Shown: positions 7,241-50,423, counted from the first letter of the stretch. The stretch: DNA of 64,000 bases from a bacterium BMS3Bbin08 (GCA_002897775.1 BDTR01000030.1:128070-192069); one strand, 5' to 3'. Program-made: numbers and translations. Notes: generated from the sequence alone by a model not told the origin.

Positions 7241-7334
7241 GGTTAAAGATCCAAATCACAAGCCTGCCTGCCGGTAGGCAGGCACCAACTCCCAATTTAC
7301 GAACGTTTGGAATTTCGTTATTGGATATTGGAGC

Positions 7335-12626: not shown

Positions 12627-14036
12627 ATGAACAACATCCTTGTCATAGACAAAGGCAGTTCTTCGATCCACAACTTCAGCAACATCCTCAAAAATAAAGA
12701 TTTTTCCATCACAAAAGTAAAAGGTCTTAAAGAGGCCCTGCCGTACCTTAAGAGAGATACTGTGGATCTGATCGTGATTGACAAGGCCTTTTCCTCAACC
12801 TCTGCCAGCTTCAGGAATTTCGTCAAACTTATAAGCGGAATCCCCAAGTTGATCCTTATATATGACCGGAGCTTTAGAGGCATGGGTGTATGGCTTAAGG
12901 ACAGGCTTGCAGTGCCTGTTCACGAGCCGGTCTCTTACAGGGAATTTGAGTACCACATAGAAAGACTTTTAAAAGATAAAAAAACATTAAAAGAGAATAA
13001 GACACTGGATATTGCGCTTCGGGCCAAACGAAAAGAACTCGGCTTTTTCGAAGACATCACCAGGATCCTTATCTCATCCCTGAGCATGAAGAAGATCCTG
13101 GCCATGATAATGAGAAAGACAAAGGCCATGATAGGGGCTGAGGCCTGGTCCATACTTTTGCTTGATGAAGAGGGGGAAGAGCTTTATTTTGAAAGGGTGC
13201 AGGGGAAGGAGACCAAAAAAGTTAAGAAGTTCAGGATCAAGGTAGGGGAAGGTATCGCGGGCTGGGTCGCCAAGGAAGGAGTTCCGGTAATAGTGCCTGA
13301 TGTCGGCTGTGACGCCCGTTTCTCAGGCAAGATAGATAAACTGCTCGATTTTAAGACCAGGTCCCTGATGTGCATTCCCATAAAGATCGAAGACAAGGTC
13401 ATAGGGGTGTTGGAGATCGTTAACAAGGTGACAGGAGAACCTTTTACAAAGGATGACCTGGACCTGATCCTGAAGTTCGTAAACCACGCGGCCATGGCGA
13501 TCGAACGCGCCTCTTTATATCTGAAAATGGAAGAACTGACCCTTACCGATGATGTTACGAACCTGTTTAACACCAGATATTTAAACCGTGCCATAGAAAT
13601 AGAGATAGAACGCTCCGACAGGTATGGGTCGCCTTTTACAGTAATATTTATGGATATTGATTCATTTAAGAAGGTTAATGACCAGCACGGGCATCTTGTC
13701 GGCGGGAAAGTGCTTAGAGAAATGTCGCAGCTTTTGCTTAACAGCCTGAGGACCGTTGACATAGTTGCCAGATACGGCGGGGATGAATTTGTTGTTGTTC
13801 TGCCCCAGACAACGCCAAAGGCTGGTTTTTATGTGGGTGAAAGGCTCAGGAAGGCGGTAGAACAACACGTATTCCTGAAGAACGAAGGATATCACCTTAG
13901 GATAACCGCCAGTTTTGGCGTGGCTTCTTATCCTGAGAACGCGAAGAGTAAGGAAGAACTTTTCCGCATTGCTGATGAAGCGATGTATAAAGGTAAGTTC
14001 TCAACGAAAAACATAGTATATGCCGCAGTCAAATAA
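12627..14036 (+). CDS. diguanylate cyclase with an N-terminal receiver-like domain and a GAF domain (REC-like-GAF-GGDEF)
   Basis: GAF segment (GIAGWVAKEGVPVIVPDV). Intact GGDEF active site (RYGGDEFVVVL). Confidence 0.85.
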   Translation: MNNILVIDKGSSSIHNFSNILKNKDFSITKVKGLKEALPYLKRDTVDLIVIDKAFSSTSASFRNFVKLISGIPKLILIYDRSFRGMGVWLKDRLAVPVHEPVSYREFEYHIERLLKDKKTLKENKTLDIALRAKRKELGFFEDITRILISSLSMKKILAMIMRKTKAMIGAEAWSILLLDEEGEELYFERVQGKETKKVKKFRIKVGEGIAGWVAKEGVPVIVPDVGCDARFSGKIDKLLDFKTRSLMCIPIKIEDKVIGVLEIVNKVTGEPFTKDDLDLILKFVNHAAMAIERASLYLKMEELTLTDDVTNLFNTRYLNRAIEIEIERSDRYGSPFTVIFMDIDSFKKVNDQHGHLVGGKVLREMSQLLLNSLRTVDIVARYGGDEFVVVLPQTTPKAGFYVGERLRKAVEQHVFLKNEGYHLRITASFGVASYPENAKSKEELFRIADEAMYKGKFSTKNIVYAAVK

Positions 14037-20142: not shown

Positions 20143-20345
20143 ACAGAATTTACAAAATGCTTGAATATTCTTATCTATAGTGGCAGAATTAGAATTAATT
20201 ATGGCATATTATTTTAAACAGGCAGAGAGGTTGATCTATGATGCCTGAGAATGAGCCTGTCATGGCCATATCTGCAGCATAGTGAGTGCTTTCGAAAGGT
20301 GCGCGCCGGATCGACTGGGAACATTGGGATTAAAGGGGGACGGAA

Positions 20346-20662
20346 TGACGGGTAAAGCATATATTGAAATACCGGAAGAAAAAATAGCCCGGTTCTGCGG
20401 GAAATGGAAGATACGTGAATTCGCGCTCTTCGGTTCTGTCCTGAGGGATGATTTCAGACCTGACAGCGACATTGACGCGCTGGTTACTTTTGATGAGGAT
20501 GCTCAACACTCCCTGTTTGACCTTGTTAATATGGAAGATGAACTCAGGGAGATTTTTGGGCGCAATGTGGACCTGGTAAGCCGCAAAGGCATTGAAGCAA
20601 GCAGAAATTATATACGAAGAAACGCAATATTGAACTCCGCAGAGGCGGTATATGCAGCGTGA
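20346..20662 (+). CDS. nucleotidyltransferase (MNT/MntA-type antitoxin)
   Basis: Polymerase beta-type nucleotidyltransferase motif GS...D.D (FALFGSVLRDDFRPDSDIDALVTF). Overlaps the downstream DUF86 gene. Shine-Dalgarno-like AAGGGGGA lies upstream of the ATG at 20346. Confidence 0.8.
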
Positions 20663-20996
20663 CCGTGAGTTTTTCCTCGACATATTGGAGGCGGCAAAAC
20701 TCGCTGTCTCTTATGTCGGTGAAAAGTCTAAGGAAGATTTTTTAAAAGACCCTCAGTGTCAGGACGCTGTTATCAGACGGCTTGAGATAATAGGTGAAGC
20801 ATCCCGACGGATTTCTGCGGAGACACAGGCGGATTTTCCTGATTTGCCGTGGGGTGAAATGATCGGAATGCGGAATGTGATGATCCATAAGTATGACGAC
20901 GTGGACCCCGGTATAGTCTGGAAGACAGTAAAAAGTAACCTCCCAAAACTTATTACATCATTTAAAACGATACTCGAAGCGCCTGATAAAGAGTAA
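20652..20996 (+). CDS. HepT-like (DUF86, HEPN superfamily) toxin
   Basis: 114 aa with the DUF86 layout (RLEIIGEASRRIS...MRNVMIHKYDDVD). Overlaps the upstream MNT gene by 11 nt. Confidence 0.8.
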   Translation: MQRDREFFLDILEAAKLAVSYVGEKSKEDFLKDPQCQDAVIRRLEIIGEASRRISAETQADFPDLPWGEMIGMRNVMIHKYDDVDPGIVWKTVKSNLPKLITSFKTILEAPDKE

Positions 20997-21304: not shown

Positions 21305-22138
21305 TTGGAAACAAGTATAGCAGTTTTTAAGGGTAAGCAGATCAGAAAAACTATTCATAACAACGAATGGTGGTTTTCAATTATCGATGTAATTGAGGTG
21401 CTCACCGGAACTGAGCGACCACGAAAGTACTGGAATGATTTAAAGAAAAAGCTGGCGGATGAAGGATATGACGAGTTGTCCGAAAAAATCGGACAACTGA
21501 AAATACAGTCGGCAGACGGGAAATACTATAAGACAGACTGTTCAAATACAGAGACAATGTTCAGGCTTATCCAGTCCATTCCATCTCCCAAAGCTGAACC
21601 TTTCAAGCGCTGGCTGGCAAAGGTTGGCTACGACCGTGTCCAGGAAATTGAAGACCCTGAACTCGGCACGAAAAGGACAAGGGCTTTATACAAGGCGAAG
21701 GGCTATTCGGACGACTGGATTGAAAAGCGCATGCGCGGTATTGCCATTCGTGAAGAGCTTACAGATGAGTGGAAAAAGAGGGAAGTGAAAGAGAAAAGGG
21801 AATACGAGATTCTCACTGCCGAGATTGCAAAAGCGGCATTCGGCATAACACCCGGCCAACACAAAAAACTTAAGGGACTGAAACGTCAAAACCTTCGTGA
21901 CCACATGAACGATCTCGAGTTAATTTTCTCAATGCTTGGCGAAGCGGCAACAACTGAGATAACGCGTGTTGATGATGCAAAAGGATTTAGTGAAAACAAA
22001 AAGTCAGCCCGTAAGGGTGGCGGCGTTGCAGGTAAGGCTCGGAAAGACCTTGAAAAAAAGACCAGGAAGAAGGTTGTTTCCCGTGAGAACTACCTGACCG
22101 AACCGGAGAGCCGGAAGAAGTTGGCAAGAAAGAAGTAA
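21305..22138 (+). CDS. Bro-N domain protein, DinD-like (DNA-damage-inducible protein D family)
   Basis: N-terminal Bro-N (FKGKQIRKTIHNNEWWFSIIDVIEVL). The central region resembles E. coli DinD (LKGLKRQNLRDHMNDLELIFSMLGEA). Lys/Arg-rich C-terminus. Confidence 0.7.
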   Translation: METSIAVFKGKQIRKTIHNNEWWFSIIDVIEVLTGTERPRKYWNDLKKKLADEGYDELSEKIGQLKIQSADGKYYKTDCSNTETMFRLIQSIPSPKAEPFKRWLAKVGYDRVQEIEDPELGTKRTRALYKAKGYSDDWIEKRMRGIAIREELTDEWKKREVKEKREYEILTAEIAKAAFGITPGQHKKLKGLKRQNLRDHMNDLELIFSMLGEAATTEITRVDDAKGFSENKKSARKGGGVAGKARKDLEKKTRKKVVSRENYLTEPESRKKLARKK

Positions 22139-22314: not shown

Positions 22315-24492
22315 ATGACAGAATATTATGCGCATAGTCTTGAAGGAAGGCCGCCGGATGAATGGCATCTCCTGGATGAGCACTTGGAGAATGTTGCAAG
22401 AATGGCCGCTGAATTCGCTAACTATTTTGGCGCCAAAACATGGGGTGAATTAGCGGGGGCAAATCATGACCTTGGCAAAGGCACACGGCCTTGGCAGGCA
22501 TACCTTCGGAAATCAAATGATATTATTGACGAATTTGCCAAGTATTATAAAGGACATCCGAATCATGCTGCTGTAGGTGCGCAATGGCTTAATAACAACT
22601 CAAGGGAAGCTGGAAAATTGTTGGCATACTGTATCGCAGGACACCATGGGGGTCTGCCTAGTTGGAGCGATTCTCCTGTTGCCTCATTGGAGATGAAGCT
22701 TCAACAACCGTTTCCTGAAGTTGCTGTGCCTTGTACAGTCTCGGAATTTCCAACCACCCTGCCTTTTCCCATTGATTCGGATCGTTTTGGGTTTCAGTTG
22801 CAATTTTTTGTTCGAATGCTTTTTTCCTGTCTTGTAGATGCGGATTTTCTTGATACGGAAGCATCTCTGGACAAAAAGAGGTCCGGCTGGCGTTCTACCT
22901 ATCCTGGAATCAGCGAACTTCATGAGAGATTCTGGGCAAATTTCAATGTGTTGCGTGAAGGAGCTGATCAAACCTTAAATGTGAACCGGCAACGGGAACT
23001 GGTTCTTGAAGACTGCTTGCGGGCAGCGGCGTTGGAACCAGGATTGTTTTCACTGACGGTTCCAACCGGCGGCGGTAAGACTCTGGCCTCGCTGGCCTTG
23101 GCACTGAATCATGCGATAAATAAAGAAAAGAGAAGAATTATTTACGTCATTCCTTTTACCAGCATCATTGAGCAGAATGCCAAGGTTTTCCGTGATATGC
23201 TGGGTGAAAATGCTGTTCTGGAACACCATTGCAATTTTCTACCTGACGATTCGAATTGGCAAACCAGGCTTGCAACTGAAAATTGGGACGCCCCTGTAGT
23301 AGTAACGACCAATGTCCAGTTTTTCAATTCTTTTTATGCCAATAAGACATCGAAGTGCCGGAAGCTGCATAATGTGGTTGAGAGTATCATTATCTTTGAT
23401 GAAGTTCAGGCCATACCGGTTGAAAAGTTGAAGCCATGCCTGGAAGTCATCAAGGAGTTGTCACTGAACTATGGTGTTACCTCGATTTTATGCACGGCCA
23501 CGCAACCTGCCATTGAGTTTTCTGACCAATTCACTACCGGACTGCAGAATGTCACGGAAATTATTCAGGATGTCCCATCGCTCTTTACAGCCTTGAAACG
23601 AACGGAGGAGGCTTTTATTGGTGAACTCAGTGAGCAGGATATTGCAGAACGGTTGCTGGAACATGAACAGGTCCTGTGCATCGTGAATACTCGGCAGCAG
23701 GCACTGGATATCTTTAATGCCTTGCCTGAGTCCGATGCAAATTTTCATCTGAGCGCCTTGATGCACCCAGTCCACCGGACGAAAAAATTGAATGAAATCA
23801 GAAACAGATTGTCGCCCGCAAACAAATTGCCGTGTCGGGTGATCAGCACACAGTTGATTGAAGCAGGTGTTGATGTGGATTTTCCCTGTGTATTTCGGGC
23901 AGTTGCCGGAATCGACAGTATTGCCCAGGCTGCAGGGCGATGTAATCGGAACGGCCTGAGCAAGGTACCATGCAAAGTGTATGTGTTTGAGTTTTCGAAA
24001 GATGGTGTTTGCTCTTTCTTTCGTCATGCTGCACAATCAGCCGCGAAGCTCTTTGAACCATTTGCCGGAAAACTTACAGATCCTGAATGTGTCCGTGAGT
24101 ATTTCGCAGATTTTTTTTGGAAAAATGAACAACGAATGGATGAGGACGGTATCATCGAAAATTACTGTCAACCGGCGCAATCAGGTAATATTCAATTTCG
24201 TGACATTGCAGAATTCCAGATGATTAAATCAGCTACCAAGCCAGTAGTCATTGCTTTGGAAGAAAATGCTATCGAACTGGTGAGTTCGCTCGAATTTGCA
24301 GAGCACAAAGGAGGAATTCTTCGGAAGCTCCAGCAGTTCAGTGTTCAAATTTACCCGTATCAATTAGAAGAAATAAAGAATTGGCTGGAAAGTCCGGTGC
24401 CGGGCGTCTGGGTCTTGCGTTCGCAAGAGCTCTACTCCGAGACTACCGGGCTCAGGTGTAAGCCACCTGAAGGACAAGCATTTTTTGGTTAA
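22315..24492 (+). CDS. cas3: CRISPR-associated helicase/nuclease Cas3 (HD domain plus SF2 helicase), type I
   Basis: 725 aa. N-terminal HD nuclease (YAHSL...HDLGK...AGHHGG). DExH helicase motifs (VPTGGGKT, IFDEVQ). Confidence 0.93.
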   Translation: MTEYYAHSLEGRPPDEWHLLDEHLENVARMAAEFANYFGAKTWGELAGANHDLGKGTRPWQAYLRKSNDIIDEFAKYYKGHPNHAAVGAQWLNNNSREAGKLLAYCIAGHHGGLPSWSDSPVASLEMKLQQPFPEVAVPCTVSEFPTTLPFPIDSDRFGFQLQFFVRMLFSCLVDADFLDTEASLDKKRSGWRSTYPGISELHERFWANFNVLREGADQTLNVNRQRELVLEDCLRAAALEPGLFSLTVPTGGGKTLASLALALNHAINKEKRRIIYVIPFTSIIEQNAKVFRDMLGENAVLEHHCNFLPDDSNWQTRLATENWDAPVVVTTNVQFFNSFYANKTSKCRKLHNVVESIIIFDEVQAIPVEKLKPCLEVIKELSLNYGVTSILCTATQPAIEFSDQFTTGLQNVTEIIQDVPSLFTALKRTEEAFIGELSEQDIAERLLEHEQVLCIVNTRQQALDIFNALPESDANFHLSALMHPVHRTKKLNEIRNRLSPANKLPCRVISTQLIEAGVDVDFPCVFRAVAGIDSIAQAAGRCNRNGLSKVPCKVYVFEFSKDGVCSFFRHAAQSAAKLFEPFAGKLTDPECVREYFADFFWKNEQRMDEDGIIENYCQPAQSGNIQFRDIAEFQMIKSATKPVVIALEENAIELVSSLEFAEHKGGILRKLQQFSVQIYPYQLEEIKNWLESPVPGVWVLRSQELYSETTGLRCKPPEGQAFFG

Positions 24493-24495
24493 TAA

Positions 24496-26821
<2,326 letters not shown>

Positions 26822-26822
<1 letters not shown>

Positions 26823-27688
26823 TGAGTGATACGATCAAAAACCGCTATGAGTTTGTCCTGTTGTTTGACGTAAAAAATGGAAATCCGAATGGTGACCCGG
26901 ACGGAGGGAATCTTCCCCGGATCGATCCCGAGACCGGGCATGGAATCACAACGGATGTCTGCCTGAAGCGTAAGATTCGAAATTACGTGGAGTTGGTTAA
27001 GGATAATAAGACACCGTTTAATATTTACGTTAAGGAAAAAGCGATTCTTACAGAACGTCGGCAGCCAGCCTATGAGGCAGTGGCAGACGAAAAAGATAAA
27101 TCTGCAAAAATCAGCAAAGCACGAGCCTGGATGTGCAAAAACTTTTTCGATGTTCGGACTTTCGGCGCTGTCATGTCGGTAAAAGAAAACAACTGCGGCC
27201 AAGTGCGAGGTCCGGTGCAGTTTGCCTTTTCGCAAAGTATCGATCCAGTCGTCCCACTGGAAGCAAGTATTACCCGAATGGCTGTAGAGACCAAAAAGGA
27301 ATCATACGCCCAGGATGGAGACAACCGGACCATGGGCCGGAAGACTTATATCCCCTACGGCCTGTATCGTGTTCACGGTTTTATCTCAGCACCACTTGCC
27401 AAACAGACCGGTTTCTCCGAAGAGGACCTTGAATTGTTCTGGAATTCCCTGCAAAACATGTTCGATCACGACCGGTCCGCGGCCCGTGGCGAAATGGCGG
27501 CTAGGAATTTGATCGTCTTCAAGCACGACAGCGAACTTGGCAACGTCCCGGCCCATAAGCTCTTTGATTTAGTAAAAGTATCGCGTTCAAATGACAGCAA
27601 CGGGCCTGCACGGGTATTTTCAGACTATGAGGTGAAAGTTGACAGCGCAAATGTTCCGGGAGGCGTAACTCTAGAGGAGAAGTTTTGA
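26822..27688 (+). CDS. cas7: Cas7c (Csd2) backbone subunit, type I-C
   Basis: [27 protein letters not shown] is the Csd2/DevR family N-terminus. Confidence 0.9.
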
Positions 27689-28258
27689 ATGACTGAAAAG
27701 AAACAATCACCCCAACTAATCCCCCCGCACGGCGGTTACCAGGAACTCCAGTCCTACAAGATGTCGGAGATCGTGTATGACGCTACAGTAGTATTCTGCA
27801 ACCGCTTCATCAACATCCGCTCCCGCACTCATGACCAGATGGTGCAGGCGGCGCGAAGCGGGAAGCAGAATATCGCTGAGGGCAGCATGGCATCGGGCAC
27901 TTCAAAGAAGTTCGAGCTTAAGCTCGTCAGTGTGGCGCGGGCAAGCCTTGAAGAAGTGCTTCTGGATTTTAAGGACTATCTGAGGCAGAAGGGGCTTGTG
28001 CTTTGGACAAAGGATCATCCAAAGGCCGGTGAAGTGAGAAAACTCTGCTATCAAAAGAATAGGTCTTATACGACTTATAAGACCTATCTTGAGCAGTCGC
28101 CACCGGAGGTGGCGGCCAATACCATGATCTGTCTGATTCACCAGACAAACTATCTGCTGGACAAGCAGTTAAGGGCCCTTGAACAAGCCTTTCTGAAAGA
28201 AGGCGGCTTTACTGAAAGACTCTACCATGCGCGATCAGGGTCGCGCAAAAAGAAATAG
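27689..28258 (+). CDS. four-helix-bundle protein (23S rRNA intervening-sequence / Avd-like family) with a ~70-aa C-terminal extension, embedded in the cas operon
   Basis: LQSYKMSEIVYDATVVF...QMVQAARSGKQNIAEGSMASGTSKKFELKLVSVARASLEEV matches the family pattern (Y.L...NIAEG.....KEF......A.GSL.E). Its start overlaps the cas7 stop (TGAATG). cas4 starts 9 nt after its stop. Confidence 0.65.
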   Translation: MTEKKQSPQLIPPHGGYQELQSYKMSEIVYDATVVFCNRFINIRSRTHDQMVQAARSGKQNIAEGSMASGTSKKFELKLVSVARASLEEVLLDFKDYLRQKGLVLWTKDHPKAGEVRKLCYQKNRSYTTYKTYLEQSPPEVAANTMICLIHQTNYLLDKQLRALEQAFLKEGGFTERLYHARSGSRKKK

Positions 28259-28266
28259 GTCATATA

Positions 28267-28940
28267 TGAGTTATAAGCCCTATAAAGAAGATGATCTTGT
28301 TCAGCTTTCAGCCTTACAGCATTTTGCTTTCTGTGAGCGGCAGTGCGCGCTGATTCACATTGAACAGATATGGAGCGAGAATATGTTCACTGCTGAAGGA
28401 AAGATCATGCATGAAAGGGTGGATACTTCAAAGTCTGAATCACGGGGAGCAGTCCGCATGGAATTCAGTGTGCCTTTGCGTTCACTCAGACTCGGACTGA
28501 CCGGCAAGGCTGATGTTGTTGAATATCACAGGCAGGATGATGGGACATGGTTGCCCTTCCCCGTGGAATACAAACGCGGTAAACCAAAGGCGGATGATTG
28601 CGACAAGGTCCAGCTCTGCGCGCAGGCAATGTGCCTTGAAGAGATGATGAGTGTTGAAATACCGAAAGGAGCTTTGTTTTACGGTCGGATCAGGCGGAGA
28701 GAAGATGTGATCTTTGACAATGCATTACGAAAGGAAACAGAAAATACTGCGAAAAAGGTTCACGAGCTTATTGAATCACAAAAAACTCCTGGACCTGAAT
28801 ATTCAAAAAGATGCAAATCCTGTTCATTGTTTCAGCAGTGCATGCCTGAGCTGTGCTCGAAAAAGAATAAAGCAAGCAGATATCTGTCAAATATTTTAAA
28901 ACAACTGGATGCTGAGGTCTCGAATAATGGGACAGGCTGA
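28267..28940 (+). CDS. cas4: Cas4 (RecB-like nuclease with a 4-Cys cluster)
   Basis: MSYKPYKEDDLVQLSALQHFAFCERQCALIH begins with a Cys. C-terminal cysteines CKSCSLFQQC. Canonical position before cas1. Confidence 0.88.
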
Positions 28941-28962
28941 GTCAGGCGTGACAGGTTAAATC

Positions 28963-29994
28963 ATGAAAAAACATCTTAACACATTATTCGTCACCACCCA
29001 GGGGGCATATCTTTCCAAGGATGGGGAAACCGTGTCAGTTAAGGTTGATGATGAAATCCGCTTGCGTATTCCAATTCACACAATTGGCGGTATTGTATGT
29101 TTCGGTCAGGTAAGCTGCAGTCCTTTTTTAATGGGGTTTTGCGCTAAAAATAACGTTGCTGTATCATTCCTGACTGAATACGGACGCTTTCTGGCAAAGG
29201 TTCAGGGGCCGGTATCCGGGAATGTGCTGTTACGAAGGGAACAATACCGGCTTGCTGATGATGAGACTGTTTCTTTAAATATTTCCAAATCAGTTATTAC
29301 AGGCAAACTTGTTAATACCAGAACAGTATTGCAGAGGTTTTTGAGAGACCACGCCGATAAACCAAATGCAGATGCAGTGAAACAGGCGTCAAAACTTATA
29401 AGCTCAACATTAAGACGGGTATATAACGAAACCTCGCTTGACGTGATAAGAGGATTTGAAGGAGATTCGGCTCGTATCTATTTCAGTGTTTTCGATAATC
29501 TTATCACTGCCAGTAAGAAAGAATTCTTTTTCAGGGAACGTAACAGGAGGCCTCCTTTGGATAGGGTGAACTGTCTGTTGTCATTTCTGTATACGATTGT
29601 AATGCATGATGTACGCTCTGCGCTTGAGACAGCAGGGCTTGATCCGGCGGTAGGGTTCCTCCACAAAGACCGGCCGGGCAGGTATGGACTCGCGCTGGAT
29701 ATGATGGAGGAATTCAGGCCGTTTCTTGCTGACAGGCTGGTTCTTTCTCTGATAAATCTCAGTCAGGTCAATGCAAAGGGATTTGAAGAAAAAGAAAATG
29801 AAGCTGTGCTAATGGATGATGATACAAGAAAGGCTGTCCTTGTTGCATATCAGAACCGGAAACAGGATGAGATTATGCATCCATTTCTTAATGAAAAAGT
29901 GACGATTGGATTGCTTTTTCATACGCAGGCATTATTGCTTGCAAGATATTTGCGCGGCGATTTGGATGCTTATCCGCCCTTTATCTGGAAGTGA
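28963..29994 (+). CDS. cas1: Cas1 integrase, type I-C
   Basis: 343 aa with the typical Cas1 sequence. Confidence 0.92.
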   Translation: MKKHLNTLFVTTQGAYLSKDGETVSVKVDDEIRLRIPIHTIGGIVCFGQVSCSPFLMGFCAKNNVAVSFLTEYGRFLAKVQGPVSGNVLLRREQYRLADDETVSLNISKSVITGKLVNTRTVLQRFLRDHADKPNADAVKQASKLISSTLRRVYNETSLDVIRGFEGDSARIYFSVFDNLITASKKEFFFRERNRRPPLDRVNCLLSFLYTIVMHDVRSALETAGLDPAVGFLHKDRPGRYGLALDMMEEFRPFLADRLVLSLINLSQVNAKGFEEKENEAVLMDDDTRKAVLVAYQNRKQDEIMHPFLNEKVTIGLLFHTQALLLARYLRGDLDAYPPFIWK

Positions 29995-30003
29995 GGATGA
30001 AAT

Positions 30004-30291
30004 ATGTTTGTTATAGTGAGCTATGATGTTTCAACTGAAGACGGCGGACAGCGGCGCCTGAGAAGGGTCGCCAGGGCATGTCAGGATTATGGACAGAGAG
30101 TTCAGTATTCTATTTTTGAATGTATGATTAATCCGGCGCAATGGACTTTTTTAAAAGAACGATTGATCAGTGAAATTGATCCTGAAAAAGACAGTCTGAG
30201 ATTTTATTACCTCGGCTCTAACTGGAAGCGCCGCGTGGAACATGTAGGGGTCCGGAAATCGCCTGATCAGGACGGTCCGTTGATCGTGTAA
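30004..30291 (+). CDS. cas2: Cas2
   Basis: 95 aa (MFVIVSYDVSTEDGGQRRLRRVARACQDYGQRVQYSIFEC). Confidence 0.92.
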   Translation: MFVIVSYDVSTEDGGQRRLRRVARACQDYGQRVQYSIFECMINPAQWTFLKERLISEIDPEKDSLRFYYLGSNWKRRVEHVGVRKSPDQDGPLIV

Positions 30292-30474
30292 GAAGGAGTG
30301 CGAACCGTAAGTTCACATTAAGTTGCCGTAAGGTTCGCACAGGGGAAAACTGCTTATTATTCTTAATGTTAGCAGTTATGTTCTTTGACAATTGAAAGTC
30401 AGTTGCTCTTGAAAGAGGGGCTTCGCAAAAATTGTCTTTTAAGGGCAGTAAAAACAACAACTTATAAAGTAAGA

Positions 30475-31536
30475 GTCGCCCCCCATGCGGGGGCGTGGAT
30501 TGAAACCATATTAATTTGTATGGGCACGCCTGAAGGTTCGTCGCCCCCCATGCGGGGGCGTGGATTGAAACTTGCTAATACACTTTCATTTGAGATAGCG
30601 CATGGTGTCGCCCCCCATGCGGGGGCGTGGATTGAAACGCTTACCATCAATACAAACTGCTGAATATGCGTGTCGCCCCCCATGCGGGGGCGTGGATTGA
30701 AACTAGATAATCGCTGTTGGATACGCCAAGCAGTAAGTCGCCCCCCATGCGGGGGCGTGGATTGAAACTTGATAGCACTGATGGAGATACAGAAGAAACT
30801 GCGTCGCCCCCCATGCGGGGGCGTGGATTGAAACCTGTTAATATTGCAGGGATGGGTCAAATAGAAGTGGTCGCCCCCCATGCGGGGGCGTGGATTGAAA
30901 CTTAAAGAAAGTAACATATTCAAAAGAAAAAACAAGTCGCCCCCCATGCGGGGGCGTGGATTGAAACTAAAGTGTTCACGGCGTTGGCTTCACTGGACAC
31001 TAGTCGCCCCCCATGCGGGGGCGTGGATTGAAACAAATTAGTTTAACTAATGGAGGTGGCGGCATGGAAGTCGCCCCCCATGCGGGGGCGTGGATTGAAA
31101 CCCCGATTCAGGCAGAGGATTTTATCTTCGAGGCCGTCGCCCCCCATGCGGGGGCGTGGATTGAAACTATCTTCTTAGGATCATAGGTAACGCTTACACG
31201 TGTCGCCCCCCATGCGGGGGCGTGGATTGAAACAGTTTTGGGTTTTATAATTATTGATTCCATAGTCGTCGCCCCCCATGCGGGGGCGTGGATTGAAACT
31301 TGATAGCCATAGGTTTTTCGCACAATAAATAATGTCGCCCCCCATGCGGGGGCGTGGATTGAAACTGTCAATAATGTAACCAGCAATATCGGAGGTAACA
31401 TGTCGCCCCCCATGCGGGGGCGTGGATTGAAACGGCGCAAAGCTGTTCTATGTATACGACAGGACGTTGTCGCCCCCCATGCGGGGGCGTGCCTGTCTGC
31501 CGGTCTACGACTCGTATAGTAGGCAGGGATTGAAAC
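30475..31536 (+). CRISPR. CRISPR array: 16 repeats of the type I-C 32-bp repeat GTCGCCCCCCATGCGGGGGCGTGGATTGAAAC and 15 spacers of 33-35 bp. The last repeat carries a 36-bp insertion. A ~180-bp AT-rich leader lies between cas2 and repeat 1.
   Basis: Repeat starts at 30475, 30540, 30607, 30672, 30737, 30803, 30870, 30936, 31003, 31070, 31136, 31202, 31268, 31334, 31403 and 31469. Repeat 16 is split as GTCGCCCCCCATGCGGGGGCGTG, then 36 bp, then GATTGAAAC. Confidence 0.97.
31492..31527. mobile_element. 36-bp palindromic insertion (CCTGTCTGCCGGTCTACGACTCGTATAGTAGGCAGG) inside CRISPR repeat 16, between GCGTG and GATTGAAAC
   Basis: The repeat is otherwise intact on both sides. The termini CCTGyCTGCC/GGCAGG are inverted. 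The same left junction recurs at 35094. Confidence 0.7.
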
Positions 31537-31601
31537 TGAAGAAGGCAATATATTTAGCAAAAGAAGTCATAAATATTGTTATTATATAAATCAAGGAAAA
31601 G

Positions 31602-31922
31602 ATGATGAATAAAATCGACCTGGAAATCGTTGAAAGATTTAGAGAGCTTGTATCACAGAAAGTAAAAGTACATGAACTCAGAGTGTTCGGCTCCCGCGCC
31701 AGAGGTGACGCTACTGCAGAGTCGGACCTTGATGTACTAATTGTTGTAGAACATCTTGACCATTCCATTGAAAGATATATAAGCGATTGCGCGTGGGAAG
31801 CAGGCTTCCCTGCTGATGTTGTAGTTGTTCCGATCCCCATAAGTATCGATGCTATCAAGAACAGCCCAATACGCGAATCCATCTTCATCAAGAATGTCTA
31901 TAATGAGGGAATTGCTGTATGA
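31602..31922 (+). CDS. minimal nucleotidyltransferase (MNT) of a HEPN/MNT toxin-antitoxin pair
   Basis: VFGSRARGDATAESDLDVLIVVE is the polymerase beta-type nucleotidyltransferase motif. Overlaps the HEPN gene by 4 nt. Confidence 0.8.
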   Translation: MMNKIDLEIVERFRELVSQKVKVHELRVFGSRARGDATAESDLDVLIVVEHLDHSIERYISDCAWEAGFPADVVVVPIPISIDAIKNSPIRESIFIKNVYNEGIAV

Positions 31923-32314
31923 CTGATTTGATGGCTCTGATACAATACCGGCTGAATGAGGCGGATGATTCCATAAAAGAAGCTGATGTTCTTCTAAGAG
32001 AAGGTATGAGCATGCGTGCCGTAATGAACAGGTTATATTATGCAATGTTTTACGCCGTATTGGCCCTTTTACAGAAAAAGCAAATTGCCACTTCAAAACA
32101 TTCAGGCGTAATTTCTCACTTTGATAAGGAATTTATAAAAAAAGGAATATTTGATAAAGAGCTATCTAAAGCATTGCATCGCGCGTTTGATCTCAGGCAG
32201 AAGGGTGATTATATGGAAGATGCAGAAGTAACGAAAGAAGATGTGGATGAGATGATCCCCAAAGTAGCCGATTTTGTTAGCAAAGTAAAAGATCACCTGC
32301 TTGGCAGTCATTAA
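31919..32314 (+). CDS. HEPN domain protein (partner of the MNT gene)
   Basis: 131 aa, all-alpha, with an R-x(4-6)-H-like motif (RAFDLRQKGDY). Classic MNT-HEPN operon organisation. Confidence 0.7.
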   Translation: MTDLMALIQYRLNEADDSIKEADVLLREGMSMRAVMNRLYYAMFYAVLALLQKKQIATSKHSGVISHFDKEFIKKGIFDKELSKALHRAFDLRQKGDYMEDAEVTKEDVDEMIPKVADFVSKVKDHLLGSH

Positions 32315-32403
32315 GTAAGATAATAAATCACAATTGTCAGCTATATTGTTCTTTAGGGCCTAAAAGTACAATATGGGAATCTGCAATATACTTTCTTGGG
32401 ATT

Positions 32404-32493
32404 ATGAGCCCTGCACAAATCGTCCAAAAACTATGGAATTACTGCAATGTCCTTCGCTCTGACCGAATCCCAAGGCCGGGTGCTCAGAAGTAA
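32404..32493 (+). pseudogene. relic 5' fragment of a type I restriction-modification hsdM gene (29 codons)
   Basis: MSPAQIVQKLWNYCNVLRSDRIPRPGAQK* is the HsdM N-terminal signature (LW..C..LR). Almost identical at DNA level to the fragment at 34900. Confidence 0.7.
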
Positions 32494-32592
32494 TTTTTAC
32501 TCTACCGTTATCGTAGTATATTAAGTACGTAATATTTCAGCTATTTGATGAAATCAAGCACTTCCAATGTATCATTTTCCTTGACAATAGGT

Positions 32593-32633
32593 ATAGTATA
32601 TATGCTATATTTCATCTATTAAATGAAATATAG
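32593..32633. promoter_or_regulatory. perfect 14-bp inverted repeat, a candidate AbiEi autoregulatory operator
   Basis: ATGCTATATTTCAT-ctattaa-ATGAAATATAGCAT lies directly upstream of the abiEi start at 32649. Confidence 0.45.
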
Positions 32634-32648
32634 CATGTTAAATGTACT

Positions 32649-33455
32649 ATGGAAAAAATAACAGGCTTAGGAACAATTGACAGGGAGCGGTTAACCGCAT
32701 TAATTCGCGGTACAAAAGGCACTATTTCAGTTGCCGAGTCAGCGGATATTTTAAAGGTATCTTCAGTTAGCGCAGCGAAGATGCTTGCTCGCTGGGCGAA
32801 AAAAGGGTGGCTGTCACGTGTGCGCCGCAGTATATATATATCCATTCCTCTTGAATCCCGCACAACCGATGTTCCTCTTGAAGACCCGTGGCTTGTTGCT
32901 GATCGTTTATTCAGCCCGTGTTATATCGGGGGATGGAGCGCGGCTGAGTACTGGAATCTCACTGAACAAATCTTTCGCACTATAGCAGTAATGACAGTAC
33001 AAAAACCAAGAAATCGTACCCCTAATATCAGAGGAACAAATTTTCTGCTTCGCACTGTTCCGGAAAGAACCATGTTTGGGCTAAAATCTGCCTGGAGGGG
33101 ACAGGTGAAAGTATCAGTATCTGACGCAACCAGGACAATTCTTGATATGCTCAATGATCCGGGACTCGGTGGCGGAATACGGTCGACTGCCGATATGTTT
33201 AAAGATTATTTAAAATCGGAAAACAAAAATCTGGACATGCTCATCGACTATTCCACGCGTTTTGGAAATGGCGCGGTCTTTAAACGTCTTGGTTTTATGC
33301 TGGAGCGTTTTTCTCCGGACGAAAACACTATCATTGAAAAGTGCAAATCGCAATTAACCAAAGGGAACTCTAAACTTGATCCAAAACTCGGGGCGGACAA
33401 GCTCGTTACACGCTGGAAGTTATGGATTCCAAAAAATTGGGTAAAGGAGCAATGA
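32649..33455 (+). CDS. AbiEi-type antitoxin (type IV toxin-antitoxin; winged-HTH regulator)
   Basis: 268 aa with an N-terminal wHTH (LTALIRGTKGTISVAESADILKVSSVSAAKMLARWAKKGWLSRVRRSIY). Gene pair with the AbiEii gene downstream. Confidence 0.75.
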   Translation: MEKITGLGTIDRERLTALIRGTKGTISVAESADILKVSSVSAAKMLARWAKKGWLSRVRRSIYISIPLESRTTDVPLEDPWLVADRLFSPCYIGGWSAAEYWNLTEQIFRTIAVMTVQKPRNRTPNIRGTNFLLRTVPERTMFGLKSAWRGQVKVSVSDATRTILDMLNDPGLGGGIRSTADMFKDYLKSENKNLDMLIDYSTRFGNGAVFKRLGFMLERFSPDENTIIEKCKSQLTKGNSKLDPKLGADKLVTRWKLWIPKNWVKEQ

Positions 33456-33456
33456 C

Positions 33457-34890
33457 GTGATTGATCGCCGGGAGATCATGGAGTTTTCCAGAGAGTGGGG
33501 ACTGACTGCAAATGTCATTGAAAAAGATTATGTGCTTGGATGGGTATTGGCCGGGATTGCCGGTCATGATAAGCTGGGTTCTGAATGGGTGTTTAAAGGA
33601 GGGACCTGTTTAAAGAAGTGTTACTTTGAAACATATCGCTTTTCCGAAGACCTGGATTTTACCGTAGTGAATGCTGAGCATTTGAACGAAGAATATCTTC
33701 TGTCTTCATTTCGTGATGTCGCCGGATGGATATACGAATCTACCGGCATAGAAATCCCGGCAGATACGATCCGTTTTGAAATCTATACAAATCCACGCGG
33801 CGCAACATCTGTTCAGGGAAGGATTGGTTACCGGGGACCAATGCAGCCTGGCGGGGCCCTTCCCCGGATAAAACTGGATTTAACAAATGATGAAATATTA
33901 GTTCTTGATCCCGCTGTACGGGAAGTCCATCATCCTTATTCCGACAGACCGGAAGACGGCATCTCCGCAAGGTGCTATTCTTTCGAAGAAGTGTATGCGG
34001 AAAAAGTCAGGGCATTGGCGGAACGTGAAAGACCGCGCGATCTTTATGACGTTATACATCTTCATCGTCATGACAGTTTAAGAACTAATCGTGAGTTAAT
34101 AATGAGCACGCTTGAAAAGAAGTGTGAATTTAAAGGGATATCCGTACCGACTATAGAAGCACTGGAAAATAAACCCGAGCGTGCCGAACTGGAAGCTGAA
34201 TGGGAGAATATGCTGGCACACCAATTGCCTGTTTTACCGCCGTTTGGACAATTCTGGCAGGAACTTCCTGAGGTGTTTGAATGGTTATATCGCGCAGTTG
34301 AAAAAGTTGCGGCTCTTCCGATATCTTCCGGACGTTATGAGGTTGATGAAACATGGCATGCCCCTGCAATGGCACAAGCCTGGTATGCTAATGCACCGCT
34401 TGAAATAATACGTTTTGCAGCAGCTAACCGTTTATGTGTGAATTTAAAATATAATGGTACAAATCGTGTCATAGAGCCATATTCCCTGCGCAGGACAAAA
34501 GATGGAAATTTGTTATTATATGCCGTCAAACACAATACACACGAGGACAGATCCTATAGAATTGACAGGATACAGGGAGCAGAAGCGACCAAGACGCCAT
34601 TTACGCCTCGTTATGTAGTCGAACTGACTGCTGCCGGACCGATTTCGGCACCTCCAACAGAACGGACATCATCCGGATATGGATTAACCAATACCAGAAA
34701 ATCAAGAATCGGTCGGGGTAGGTCTATAAGCCGTTCAATGAGTTTTGGGCCTAAATATATAATCGAATGTACTTATTGCGGTAAGAAATTCAATCGAAAA
34801 AGCTATACTACCAGTCTAAATGCTCACAAGGATAAAAGCGGATATCCTTGCCCGGGAAGGATTGGGTATATGGTAGATACGAAGTATTAG
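33457..34890 (+). CDS. AbiEii/AbiGii-family nucleotidyltransferase toxin fused to a C-terminal WYL-like domain and a zinc ribbon
   Basis: N-terminus: DUF1814/AbiEii motifs (WVFKGGTCLKKCYFETYRFSEDLDFTVV). Residues ~310-375: LKYNGTNRVIEPYSLRRTKDGNLLLYAVKHNTHEDRSYRIDRI matches the WYL-domain pattern. C-terminus: CTYCGKKF...CPGRIGY. GTG start at 33457 with AAGGAG 7 nt upstream. Confidence 0.7.
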   Translation: MIDRREIMEFSREWGLTANVIEKDYVLGWVLAGIAGHDKLGSEWVFKGGTCLKKCYFETYRFSEDLDFTVVNAEHLNEEYLLSSFRDVAGWIYESTGIEIPADTIRFEIYTNPRGATSVQGRIGYRGPMQPGGALPRIKLDLTNDEILVLDPAVREVHHPYSDRPEDGISARCYSFEEVYAEKVRALAERERPRDLYDVIHLHRHDSLRTNRELIMSTLEKKCEFKGISVPTIEALENKPERAELEAEWENMLAHQLPVLPPFGQFWQELPEVFEWLYRAVEKVAALPISSGRYEVDETWHAPAMAQAWYANAPLEIIRFAAANRLCVNLKYNGTNRVIEPYSLRRTKDGNLLLYAVKHNTHEDRSYRIDRIQGAEATKTPFTPRYVVELTAAGPISAPPTERTSSGYGLTNTRKSRIGRGRSISRSMSFGPKYIIECTYCGKKFNRKSYTTSLNAHKDKSGYPCPGRIGYMVDTKY

Positions 34891-34899
34891 AACAATAAA

Positions 34900-35060
34900 A
34901 TGAGCCCAGCACAAATCGTCCAAAAACTCTGAAATTACTGCAACGTCCTTCGTGACGACGGAATGAGCTGCGGAGATTATGTGGAACAGCTTACGTATCT
35001 GCTGTTTCTCAAGATGGCTGATGAGAGGGCTAAACCGCCATATAATCAACCGACTCAGTA
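34900..35060 (+). pseudogene. second relic hsdM 5' fragment (~53 codons) with a premature stop (TGG to TGA at codon 11), cut off by a CRISPR repeat remnant
   Basis: MSPAQIVQKL*NYCNVLRDDGMSCGDYVEQLTYLLFLKMADERAKPPYNQPTQ* has the HsdM N-terminal domain signature. No intact hsdM follows. Confidence 0.7.
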
Positions 35061-35070
35061 AATAGATTTA

Positions 35071-35093
35071 GTTGCCCCCCATGCGGGGGCGTG
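35071..35093 (+). repeat. CRISPR repeat 5' portion (GTTGCCCCCCATGCGGGGGCGTG) joined directly to CCTGCCTGCCAGTCTACGACT...
   Basis: 23 of 23 positions match the repeat with one mismatch. It breaks at the same position as repeat 16, and the adjoining sequence matches the left end of the 36-bp insertion. Confidence 0.75.
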
Positions 35094-35316
35094 CCTGCCT
35101 GCCAGTCTACGACTGAGAAAAATCCCGCCTTCAGAAGATAATGCTGTGAGATCGATAAATAAAGCTGAACACTGGTTAAAAACAAAGCAATGGTGCCGGT
35201 AACTGATGTGGACTACTGACACATATAAAAGAGAGGGTATTTGTTAATTTTGACAAACTATAATAATTAAGTTATACTTTAATTAAGAAGTAAAACAAAT
35301 TTATGGAGGTAAAACT

Positions 35317-35604
35317 ATGCCTACAGTAACTGTATCATCAAAAGGGCAGATTGTCATGCCAAAAAAGATACGGGATGCCCTTGGCATAAAGCCGAAACAG
35401 AAGGTATTTTTGAAAGTTGTACAAGATCATGCTGAAATTATACCGCTGCCGGAAAATCCTGCTCAGGCATTCTGCGGTATTTTCAAAAAAGGTTCATCAC
35501 TGACAAAATCACTGCTGAAGGATCGAAAGGAGGAAGCAAAACTTGAAGAGAAAAATATTGCTCGATTCTTACGCGCTTCTGGCATATCTAAAAAAAGAAG
35601 ATAA
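35317..35604 (+). CDS. vapB: AbrB/MazE/SpoVT-family antitoxin (VapB-like)
   Basis: MPTVTVSSKGQIVMPKKIRDALGIKPKQKVFL is the swapped-hairpin AbrB-type DNA-binding domain. Lies upstream of the PIN gene and overlaps it in another frame. Confidence 0.7.
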   Translation: MPTVTVSSKGQIVMPKKIRDALGIKPKQKVFLKVVQDHAEIIPLPENPAQAFCGIFKKGSSLTKSLLKDRKEEAKLEEKNIARFLRASGISKKRR

Positions 35605-35944
35605 CTACAGGAAAGTGATGGAATTATTAAATTCGGCGCCTGAAGATTGTTCTATTATAATGAATGAAATCAATGCGGGAGAAAGTTACTATATTATTGC
35701 CAGAGAAAGAGGAATCAGGCAAGCCGATTATTTCATTGAAACCATTCTTCCTAACCTTCCTATAGACATTATATCCAATTCATTCGACCAGATCATAGAT
35801 GCTTCCAGAATCAAAGTTGACCATTCCATTTCTTATGCTGACTGTTTTGTTGTCGCTACAGCCGTCCGTGAAAAAGCCGTGATTGTTACAGGCGATCCTG
35901 ATTTTAAGCGAGTTAAAGATATTGTGGATGTAGAATGGATATAG
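35543..35944 (+). CDS. vapC: PIN-domain ribonuclease toxin (VapC-like)
   Basis: KILLDSYALLAY near the N-terminus carries the first acidic PIN residue. CFVVATAVREKAVIVTGDPDF carries the later one. The start assignment is uncertain; this one overlaps vapB by about 60 nt. Confidence 0.7.
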   Translation: MKRKILLDSYALLAYLKKEDNYRKVMELLNSAPEDCSIIMNEINAGESYYIIARERGIRQADYFIETILPNLPIDIISNSFDQIIDASRIKVDHSISYADCFVVATAVREKAVIVTGDPDFKRVKDIVDVEWI

Positions 35945-35979
35945 ATTTAAAAATTAATACATAAACAGATATTTTTCTA

Positions 35980-36019
35980 TGCCCCCCCCATGCGGTGGCG
36001 TGCCTGCGGGGATTGAAAC
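35980..36019 (+). repeat. degenerate CRISPR repeat carrying an 8-bp insertion (CCTGCGGG) at the same GCGTG^GATTGAAAC position
   Basis: GCCCCCCCCATGCGGTGGCGTG-cctgcggg-GATTGAAAC. This is either a degenerate terminal repeat or a footprint of the palindromic element. Confidence 0.6.
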
Positions 36020-36136
36020 TGCTTTATTTCAGTGCCTTCAGTGTTCTCAGTGGTTGTATGAGAGAATATTCAATTACCCAGGACTGAAGCTGCTCTATTG
36101 ACTACTCCATTTATTCGGAGGTATACTTAAAAATAT

Positions 36137-36250
36137 CCTGGGGGAGGCGCAGACCTGTGGAACTACGGGTCAGGCCTGAGAGTTTTCCCGAATATTCGGG
36201 GAGAGACCCCTTGAACCTGAACTGGGTAATACCAGCGGAGGAAAAGGAGG
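36137..36250 (+). ncRNA. TPP (THI-box) riboswitch
   Basis: Conserved CTGAGA (36176-36181) and ...GACCCCTTGAACCTGAACTGGGTAATACCAGCGGAGGAA fit the THI element consensus. Located upstream of the thiamine operon. Confidence 0.8.
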
Positions 36251-36265
36251 AATAAAAAAATTATA

Positions 36266-37798: not shown

Positions 37799-37999
37799 AT
37801 GAAACTTAAATTAAACGGAGACACTGCGGAGTTTCAGGACGGCCTTACTGTTGCGGGCCTTCTTGAAAACCTCAAGATAGAGCCCGGAAGGGTTGCCGTA
37901 GAGGTTAATATGGAAATTGTGAAAAAACAGGATTATCAGAAAGTGGTCGTTAAACAGGGTGATTCAATAGAGATCGTGAATTTTGTAGGTGGAGGGTAA
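37799..37999 (+). CDS. thiS: sulfur-carrier protein ThiS
   Basis: 66 aa, beta-grasp fold, ends in GG. Confidence 0.88.
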   Translation: MKLKLNGDTAEFQDGLTVAGLLENLKIEPGRVAVEVNMEIVKKQDYQKVVVKQGDSIEIVNFVGGG

Positions 38000-38004
38000 T
38001 AAAT

Positions 38005-38130
38005 TTAGTGGTCGCCCTTCGGGCAAGCCCTCCAAAATAACCGGCGGGCAAGCACAATGTAATGATTTTCTTATTAACATATTCGCTCACTACGCCTGCC
38101 TGCCGGCAGGCAGATTCACTGAGCATTCAT
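38005..38130 (+). repeat. dispersed ~110-nt intergenic repeat, copy B (includes the CTGCCTGCCGGCAGGCAG palindrome)
   Basis: Same conserved blocks as copies A and C. The UUCG-tetraloop hairpin GCCCTTCGGGC is present. Confidence 0.7.
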
Positions 38131-38165
38131 AAATTGTAAATTGCAAATTGAAAAAGGAGAGATTT

Positions 38166-50267: not shown

Positions 50268-50285
50268 GTTTTTTTCAATTGACAA

Positions 50286-50398
50286 TTAGTGGTCACCCGC
50301 CAAAAATATCGGCGGGTAAGCACAATGTATGGAATTGATATTATTACATTTGCTCACGAACACCTGCCTTTGGCAGGCTACGCTCGCTGTACATTCAT
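50286..50398 (+). repeat. dispersed ~110-nt intergenic repeat, copy C
   Basis: TTAGTGGTCACCCGCC...CGGCGGGTAAGCACAATGTA...TTTGCTCAC...CCTGCCTTTGGCAGG...CATTCAT. Confidence 0.7.
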
Positions 50399-50423
50399 CA
50401 ATTAACAATTATCAATCGAAAAC

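Follow-up and report, generated by a model that had tools for sequence, protein, structure and literature searches.

The small dispersed repeat (SDR) elements of Nostocaceae reportedly nest and embed in tandem heptamer repeats. Among the HIP1-enriched cyanobacterial genomes surveyed in PMC5861425, SDR-like repeats are stated to be absent outside Nostocaceae. Repetitive extragenic palindromic (REP) sequences carry, as their defining tag, a GTAG or CGTC tetranucleotide at one end (PMC3733652), and REPIN-RAYT systems are characterized as mostly vertically inherited (10.1101/2022.05.22.493013). Type I-C repeats of CRISPR arrays are 32 nt long and form a 7-bp stem with a 5-nt loop, a 2-nt 5' overhang and an 11-nt 3' overhang ending ATTGAAAC (PMC8524198). 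Cas5c cuts them after nt 21, the recognition by the Bacillus halodurans enzyme being centred on U22-G23-G24 with the 11-nt handle downstream (PMC8524198). Here we describe a 64,000-nt stretch of DNA, hereafter the window, from bacterium BMS3Bbin08 (GCA_002897775.1, BDTR01000030.1:128070-192069), a marine Nitrospirota bacterium, in which a type I-C array is followed by three broken repeats, A, B and C, interrupted at one and the same position by a 36-bp hairpin, by its left part and by an 8-bp stub, respectively. Contigs and loci compared with the window carry L numbers.

The intact repeat, GTCGCCCCCCATGCGGGGGCGTGGATTGAAAC (32 nt, n=15, 30475-31433), folds into exactly the I-C shape of PMC8524198 and matches its ATTGAAAC ending as well. 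Beyond the intact repeats, the relics A, B and C (Table 1) are all split between G23 and G24, and a preliminary annotation of the window, the sequence-only reading, had placed the three interruptions correctly. The insert of A is CCTGTCTGCCGGTCTACGACTCGTATAGTAGGCAGG (31492-31527). Since intact and broken repeats stand side by side, they form a clean pair of empty and filled sites, which fixes the boundaries of the element: from GCGTG|GATTG to GCGTG-[36 bp]-GATTG, exactly 36 bp are added with no target duplication. In B, the hairpin part, CCTGCCTGCCAGTCTACGACT, is 21 nt long and differs from the insert of A at two positions. It stops at the hairpin tip: in the consensus fold, the apical loop, ACT, corresponds to nt 19-21 of the element. 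Such a tip is a site at which palindromes are known to break. No further relic of repeat or hairpin was detected by the relic scan of the interval from A to C. Under a random model with a 66-bp repeat-spacer unit, the chance of two more insertions at the same phosphodiester bond is ~2e-4. Hence, the common breakpoint reflects common descent or site specificity rather than coincidence.

Table 1. Positions, within the 64,000-nt window, of the array, its broken repeats, the cassettes between them and the short family members.
Feature	Position	Strand	Composition, context or support
Short family member CCTGCCTGCCGGTAGGCAGG	7263-7282		between mfd and cytidylyltransferase gene
Type I-C cas operon	22315-30291	+	cas3, cas5c, cas8c, cas7, inserted 189-aa open reading frame (ORF), cas4, cas1, cas2; Pfam on identical contig L001; ORF list
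Array leader	30292-30474	+	between cas2 and first repeat; retained in sister contigs L002, L003, L004 with differing first spacers
Active array	30475-31468	+	15 intact repeats (32 nt) with 15 spacers (33-36 nt); spacer content strain-dependent
Broken repeat A	31469-31536	+	repeat nt 1-23 (31469-31491), 36-bp hairpin (31492-31527), repeat nt 24-32 (31528-31536)
MNT-HEPN cassette	31539-32314	+	MNT 31605-31922, HEPN 31919-32314; Pfam; homology with L186, L187 starts at AAGAAGGCAAT
HsdM N-terminal fragment, copy 1	32404-32468	+	86% direct repeat of 34900-34964
AbiEi and AbiEii with WYL and zf-BED-like tail	32649-34890	+	AbiEi 32649-33455, AbiEii 33457-34890; Pfam; PADLOC AbiEi E=3.7e-113, AbiEii E=6.5e-191
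HsdM N-terminal pseudogene fragment, copy 2	34900-35062	+	in-frame stop; Pfam HsdM_N E=9e-10
Broken repeat B	35071-35114	+	repeat nt 1-23 with one mismatch (35071-35093), left 21 nt of hairpin (35094-35114), then unrelated DNA
VapBC	35250-35944	+	promoter 35250-35278, AbrB/MazE-type vapB 35317-35604, PIN vapC 35543-35944; Pfam; promoter scan
35-nt stretch of spacer length, possible relic spacer	35945-35979	+	outside VapBC cassette as delimited by L246; local spacers 33-36 nt
Broken repeat C, degenerate trailer repeat	35980-36019	+	repeat nt 1-23 with four mismatches, 8-bp stub CCTGCGGG (36003-36010), then GATTGAAAC; same in L002, L018
Thiamine pyrophosphate (TPP) riboswitch ahead of thiH, end of CRISPR trailer	36130-36261	+	Rfam RF00059, 61.7 bits
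Short family member (CTGCCTGCCGGCAGGCAG)	38095-38113		between thiS and thiG
Short family member CCTGCCTTTGGCAGG	50363-50377		in related intergenic repeat of ~150 nt

The insert belongs to a dispersed family of palindromes, CCTGCCTGCC…GGCAGGCAGG. The 36-bp consensus, CCTGCCTGCCGGTCTACGACTCGTAGAGCAGGCAGG, forms a stem of 15 bp that has a bulge of 3 nt (-23.1 kcal/mol, z = -5.4). With its three substitutions, the copy in A reaches -14.6 kcal/mol. A scan of the GTDB species representatives, whose query was the 21-mer common to A and B and which addressed the 36-bp subfamily only, returned 11 loci in four or five phyla, the hosts being Nitrospirales, Nitrospirota, Thermodesulfovibrionia, Ignavibacteriae/Ignavibacteria, Bacteroidota and Patescibacteria metagenome-assembled genomes (MAGs). 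Most of these loci hold the 36-bp hairpin CCTGCCTGCCGGTCTACGACTCRTRGAGCAGGCAGG; the copies in L007, L011 and L012 are longer or have an extra base, two of them being nested. They occupy unrelated intergenic sites between ordinary or housekeeping genes, with no toxin-antitoxin (TA) genes nearby. Judging from N-terminal residues, the L008 copy presumably lies between two purine-synthesis-like genes and the L009 copy beside a glutamine-synthetase-like gene. The 20-bp core palindrome was sought in viral contigs with a pattern constraining the outer stems only and leaving the flanks free. It was found in 62 copies (56 non-redundant at 20 bp), mostly perfect CCTGCCTGCCGGCAGGCAGG and in very diverse contexts. 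In one viral-contig tRNA-Met (L226, 2239-2330), the 20-bp palindrome makes up an additional variable arm, and ARAGORN still recognises the gene as a tRNA; in L238 (~498-545), the palindrome sits in the D-loop of a tRNA 5' fragment. From these data, the insert truly belongs to a widespread family of very small palindromic mobile elements that we did not find described, the literature search by sequence having returned no match to the element.

The window itself contains three short members of the family, and the termini of the insert do match palindromes elsewhere in the window, as the sequence-only reading had noticed. The copy at 7263 and the 36-bp copies of L015 and L005 have ~15 + 6 nt of flanking sequence in common and differ by a 16-nt inner indel; because the flanks align around this indel, the hairpin changes length in place. 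Two related intergenic stretches of ~150 nt, at 37990-38150 in the thiS/thiG gap and at 50270-50420 ahead of an RF-1-domain gene (…CGGCGGGYAAGCACAATGTA…GCTCAC-hairpin-…CATTCAT…), each have a central short CCTGCC…GGCAGG hairpin and could represent a larger repeat unit or a small RNA. In L247 (290-320), TCTACGAGTCGTAGA, which is the inner palindrome of the longer form, stands once by itself, lacking the CCTGCC outer stems, a hint that the 36-bp form may combine two small palindromes, one nested in the other. Nested forms are found in L011, L012, L024 and L213. Besides, ~13% of the unbiased copies lie in phase within tandem heptamer repeats, lag 7 being the top flank periodicity; flank identity of at least 6/7 is reached by 8.9% of copies versus 0.4% in the null and concerns this subset of copies only. 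Such tracts surround, for instance, the copies in L204 (8396), L225 (897), L228 (3452), L220 (3391), L191 (10596 and 11254) and many JGI loci, with units such as GTGAAAG, TCTCGTC or GATTGCA/AAATCTA and nearly identical 7 nt on both sides. Such tracts may be preferred as targets, or they may have grown through successive rounds of insertion and excision. A 7-bp target duplication was considered as a property of the family and rejected, being confined to the copies in heptamer tracts and absent at the CRISPR site.

Neither a transposase near the hairpin copies examined nor a parent insertion sequence (IS) was seen. Rfam gave no match to the hairpin, finding only a tRNA and the TPP riboswitch; likewise, cultured phages and plasmids gave no significant match to the hairpin, nor plasmids to the broken repeat. 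A clean insertion with no target duplication is what single-strand, HUH-type transposition would give. Two other origins were examined for the insert. A mis-integrated ordinary spacer (36 bp being a spacer length) was discarded, as both ends of the insert coincide with the boundaries of the dispersed element and its sequence is met again in B. The idea that B marks the left end of a larger element with cargo was discarded likewise, since all 11 GTDB copies continue as a palindrome and none continues as B does.

The A/B/C structure is identical along four assembly routes (SPAdes, MEGAHIT and Logan contigs, and GCA_002897755.1 at NCBI), which rules out an assembly artefact. In all sister contigs, A, B, C, the cassettes and everything downstream are invariant, and nine of them agree in all 113 nt between the break in A and the MNT start codon. 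At least three different last spacers abut A among the strains, and none of the ~45-50 younger repeats offering an identical target in sister strains carries an insert. Taken together, invariant relics, differing spacers and clean young repeats indicate that the event is old and not recurring, and the invariance places the breaks before the divergence of the strains. A is thus the fixed terminal repeat of an active array, its first 23 nt still recombining in repeat-repeat deletions. In the relatives next in Cas1 similarity (83-85% identity), both the repeat and the genomic context differ.

From A to C, the interval holds MNT-HEPN, an HsdM fragment, AbiEi with AbiEii-WYL, a second HsdM fragment, B, 135 nt (35115-35249), VapB with the PIN-domain VapC, and 35 nt. 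The sequence-only reading had announced TA modules in place of spacers. Indeed, MNT, HEPN, AbiEi, AbiEii with WYL, an AbrB/MazE-type antitoxin and a PIN toxin were recovered with Pfam and PADLOC, and the domain pairs NTP_transf_2 with HEPN, AbiEi_4 with AbiEii, and MazE/AbrB with PIN designate putative TA modules, whose toxicity is predicted only. Two small corrections apply to its statement that the interval carries such modules instead of spacers: the two HsdM N-terminal fragments also lie between A and B, and a relic spacer may be represented by the stretch at 35945-35979, which separates C from the PIN stop codon.

The MNT-HEPN cassette, of which the MNT ORF encodes 106 aa with the gene call starting at the second ATG, has homologs of 84-98% protein identity in unrelated contexts (L186, L187, Scalindua loci), with neither hairpin nor repeat. 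The upstream region that they share begins, in the window, 2-3 nt past the last base of A, at AAGAAGGCAAT, so that no old spacer is left there. A microhomology, ATT-GAAA, links the repeat end and the native flank of this cassette. For the VapBC pair, Dissulfurispira thermophila has an 89% ortholog, the homology spanning the -35 box to the stop codon only. That copy (L246, 9268-11640, AP022873) is bordered by an rve_3 transposase fragment on one side and, on the other, by a cas1 cut short at 143 aa, where an inverted repeat of GGGGATT/GGGAATT heptamers stands; trpE and pyrF, which also flank the locus in the window, lie ~8 kb away. AbiEii is fused to WYL and a weak zf-BED-like tail (477 aa), and the AbiE pair is flanked by copies of the hsdM 5' end, 86% identical over 65 nt, which suggests a block between A and B assembled from a type I restriction-modification defence island. 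Since cassettes occur elsewhere without hairpin or repeats, they move independently and are not delivered by the hairpin. The earlier proposal that the element delivers or nucleates TA cargo is therefore not supported, the other hairpins lying among housekeeping genes and MNT-HEPN and VapBC existing elsewhere on their own. Ordinary illegitimate recombination is favoured by the ATT-GAAA microhomology and by the composition of the 3.5-kb block, a mosaic that includes two hsdM fragments.

The explanation that we retain as the best, at slightly better than even, is one old insertion, after which the marked repeat was duplicated within the array and the trailer was later filled with cassettes. We infer a single origin and the following order of events. 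A very small GC-rich palindrome would have inserted once, long ago, near the trailer end, between G23 and G24 and with no target duplication. The marked repeat would then have been copied by array dynamics, i.e., unequal recombination of units, gene conversion or duplication at spacer uptake; such copying of one marked repeat would yield the identical breakpoint in three neighbouring old repeats. Duplication of a repeat-spacer unit does occur in a related array, as illustrated by L047 (13152-13285), where the spacer TTGGGTTCGCTCTTAATACTTTTACCGATTTGCAC stands twice in tandem. During trailer decay, the hairpin of C would have collapsed to 8 bp, which is plausible given the inner 16 nt gained or lost in place in related copies, and B would have lost everything to the right of the hairpin tip. 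Finally, the former spacer slots would have been filled, through illegitimate recombination, by the independently mobile MNT-HEPN, AbiE and VapBC and by hsdM scraps.

Lying between G23 and G24, the hairpin splits the trinucleotide read by Cas5c and displaces the handle by 36 nt. A would probably be unable to start a guide RNA, and presumably no guides are made beyond it. It may also process the 3' end of the last guide poorly, at a cost that would be low in a terminal repeat.

Several points weigh against one old insertion. The ancestral locus without the insertion was not found; A, B and C are present in every contig of the species recovered, and the uninterrupted sister locus that the sequence-only reading had looked to for comparison did not turn up. 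The collections were each scanned for some of the hairpin variants only. A and B have no derived substitution in common (A has T5; B has A11). At least 10 JGI loci hold a family member directly 5' of GATTGAAA, many such members lying in GATTG-type heptamer tracts, this flank being imposed by the search pattern and hence biased. SDR5, a very small element, inserts exactly inside HIP1, between nt 3 and 4 (PMC4390886). Lastly, two cassette junctions (A|MNT, and PIN stop|35-nt stretch) fall within ~3 nt of a repeat-spacer boundary, which plain illegitimate recombination does not predict.

The first rival explanation is site-specific re-insertion, in which the element would recognise a sequence or structure at GCGTG^GATTGAAAC, 3' of the repeat stem-loop, and would have inserted three times independently. 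It would account for the three identical breakpoints and for A and B lacking common derived mutations, it has in SDR5 a precedent for exact targeting, and it could draw on the JGI members next to GATTGAAA as well as on those of L010, L030 and L208, which sit 3-10 nt after another GC-rich hairpin. However, the copies collected blind to their flanks tell otherwise: the flanks of the 11 GTDB loci and of the 56 non-redundant 20-bp copies have nothing in common with GCGTG^GATTGAAAC and no common target, and the GATTGAAA flank was built into the search that returned it. JGI metagenomes scanned for the hairpin followed by GATTGAAA (right junction; inserts of ~25-55 bp ending GCAGG) gave 24 loci, none of them a CRISPR repeat, and IMG/VR scanned for both junctions gave chance matches only, with no broken CRISPR repeat. 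Close relatives have untouched arrays, those nearest among the other I-C ones (L045 and L047, with 33 and 66 regular repeats) containing no insert, and the ~45-50 younger identical targets are likewise untouched in all strains. Re-insertion is, on this evidence, unlikely, though of the rivals it is the one to be taken most seriously. The sequence-only reading had pictured a small palindromic repeated element specific for CRISPR repeats and expected further copies of it and of its junctions. The element is real and its family extends over several phyla; further copies were found, but not further broken CRISPR repeats, and the specificity is not supported, given the absence of repeat-like flanks and the clean younger repeats and relatives' arrays.

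A second rival couples the duplication of the marked repeat to an integrase. Long DNA would have been joined at repeat boundaries by the adaptation machinery or a similar activity, as "giant spacers", with A and B flanking the 3.5-kb MNT-HEPN/AbiE block, B and C flanking VapBC, and a second attack misplaced at the hairpin tip. The MNT cassette does begin 2-3 nt past the last base of A, and the VapBC homology stops at the stop codon, followed by a spacer-length stretch before C; a truncated upstream copy (B) with a full downstream copy (C) would fit a misplaced second attack. However, the right end of the 3.5-kb block can be placed no better than within 18 nt, the block is a mosaic with two hsdM fragments, which implies several recombination events, and the ATT-GAAA microhomology is a simpler cause of the left junction. 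Moreover, we know of no demonstration in vivo of kilobase-sized DNA uptake by Cas1-Cas2, which weighs against such giant spacers. We consider this course of events improbable. The associated idea that the hairpin is a natural barcode, A, B and C being copies of one repeat duplicated at each joining of kilobase DNA at repeat boundaries, appears to us a shade more doubtful still; if it were true, an adaptation-type integrase or another repeat-boundary activity would install giant spacers, and the cruciform-prone hairpin would misdirect one attack. The single old insertion and the integrase-coupled duplication both make A, B and C copies of one marked repeat, and their common descent, on either course, is fairly probable. 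Finally, a functional module, in which hairpin repeats would be kept as decoys, as an insulator between array and TA genes or as a CreA-like degenerate mini-array regulating the toxins, might be read from the full conservation of A, B and C among strains and from the position of A directly upstream of the MNT promoter region, but it is very improbable, as conservation among strains so little diverged extends equally to all of the trailer DNA, the hairpins show decay (A has three substitutions and C a stub), and neither an intrinsic terminator, a role for which the hairpin was considered and rejected, nor a promoter-like site is predicted at the hairpins.

The locus upstream of A is a regular type I-C system. 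The families Cas3, Cas5d, Csd1 (cas8c), Cas7, Cas4, Cas1 and Cas2 are present according to Pfam on the identical contig L001, among whose called genes no Cas6 family matched. The leader is common to the sister contigs L002, L003 and L004 while their spacers differ, as is found where adaptation takes place at the leader end; the variation of spacers among strains indicates ongoing renewal of the array. Cas1 and VapC have their nearest relatives in Nitrospirae/Thermodesulfovibrionales. Between cas7 and cas4, the Nitrospirota I-C operons compared hold an extra gene that differs by relative, namely a 23S_rRNA_IVP-like four-helix protein in the window (27689-28258) and in L044 (4174-4758), a RhuM-family protein in L045 (8321-9382) and a HEAT-repeat protein in L047 (8446-9312), so that this place looks like a variable slot for accessory genes within the operon. 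Upstream of cas3, the window encodes a second MNT/HepT TA pair and a Bro-N protein (20282-20996 and 21305-22138), the latter matching PDC-S13, a candidate defence family of PADLOC (E=2e-118); L047, too, has a Bro-N gene upstream of cas3. The I-C array of the relative L045 terminates in 2-3 units of another repeat (…TTTTAATCGAACCAATTGTGGAATTGAAAC, 13727-13870), a second array type abutting the first. At the start of the public contig L058 (~140-198), an Illumina adapter (…ACACTCTTTCCCTACACGACGCTCTTCCGATCT) is fused to the array, an assembly artefact there.

Compared with known systems, the locus recalls the IS and MITE (miniature transposable element with inverted repeats) insertions described in CRISPR-Cas loci (e.g., IS into cas genes, PMC10359306) in that a mobile element disrupts the locus. 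In contrast to IS in cas genes, the insert measures 36 bp, comes with neither transposase nor target duplication, lies inside repeats and leaves the system active upstream. The sequence-only reading had called the element MITE-like. For a MITE, a target-site duplication and a size of ~50-500 bp with the terminal inverted repeats of a parent IS are expected; the hairpin has only 36 bp and no such duplication, and no parent IS was seen, so that this label is not retained. In defence islands, the same types of modules adjoin cas genes and arrays, as do the second MNT/HepT pair upstream of cas3 and the D. thermophila VapBC beside a cas1 remnant. Here, however, the cassettes are interleaved with repeat relics, in former spacer positions. 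CreTA/CreR-like mini-arrays, in which a pseudo-spacer flanked by two pseudo-repeats matches in part the promoter repressed by it, are a further point of comparison, from which A departs by having no intact 5' handle. The locus gives no evidence for an element homing to CRISPR repeats. It offers instead an example of how the trailer of an array may fossilise, with a repeat disabled at the trinucleotide read by Cas5c, a terminal repeat thereby fixed, and dead slots filled by TA cassettes.

With REP/REPIN sequences, which RAYT (Y1 HUH) transposases mobilise, the family shares the 20-40 bp imperfect extragenic palindromes, present in several copies per genome between genes. The REP tag is missing: the element ends in CCTG/CAGG, and CGTAG occurs beside the apical loop instead. 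No RAYT gene, which in such systems is single-copy and flanked by the repeats, was seen in data that fall short of a full genome, and where REPIN-RAYT systems are mostly passed on vertically, the hairpin family is near-identical across phyla. Together with REP sequences, the closest described elements are the SDR elements, which likewise measure tens of bases, have a central palindrome and insert cleanly, as evidenced here by the CRISPR repeat as empty and filled pair and by the extra arm of tRNA-Met; nesting and the association with tandem heptamers are also seen here, in a subset of copies. The sequences are nonetheless presumably unrelated. The hosts here are Nitrospirota, Ignavibacteriota, Bacteroidota and Patescibacteria MAGs as well as viral contigs and not cyanobacteria, and SDR5 has a precise target in HIP1, whereas no single preferred target was found for the hairpin family. 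Mobile palindromes of the SDR or REP type may therefore be more widespread than the known cyanobacterial and proteobacterial cases.

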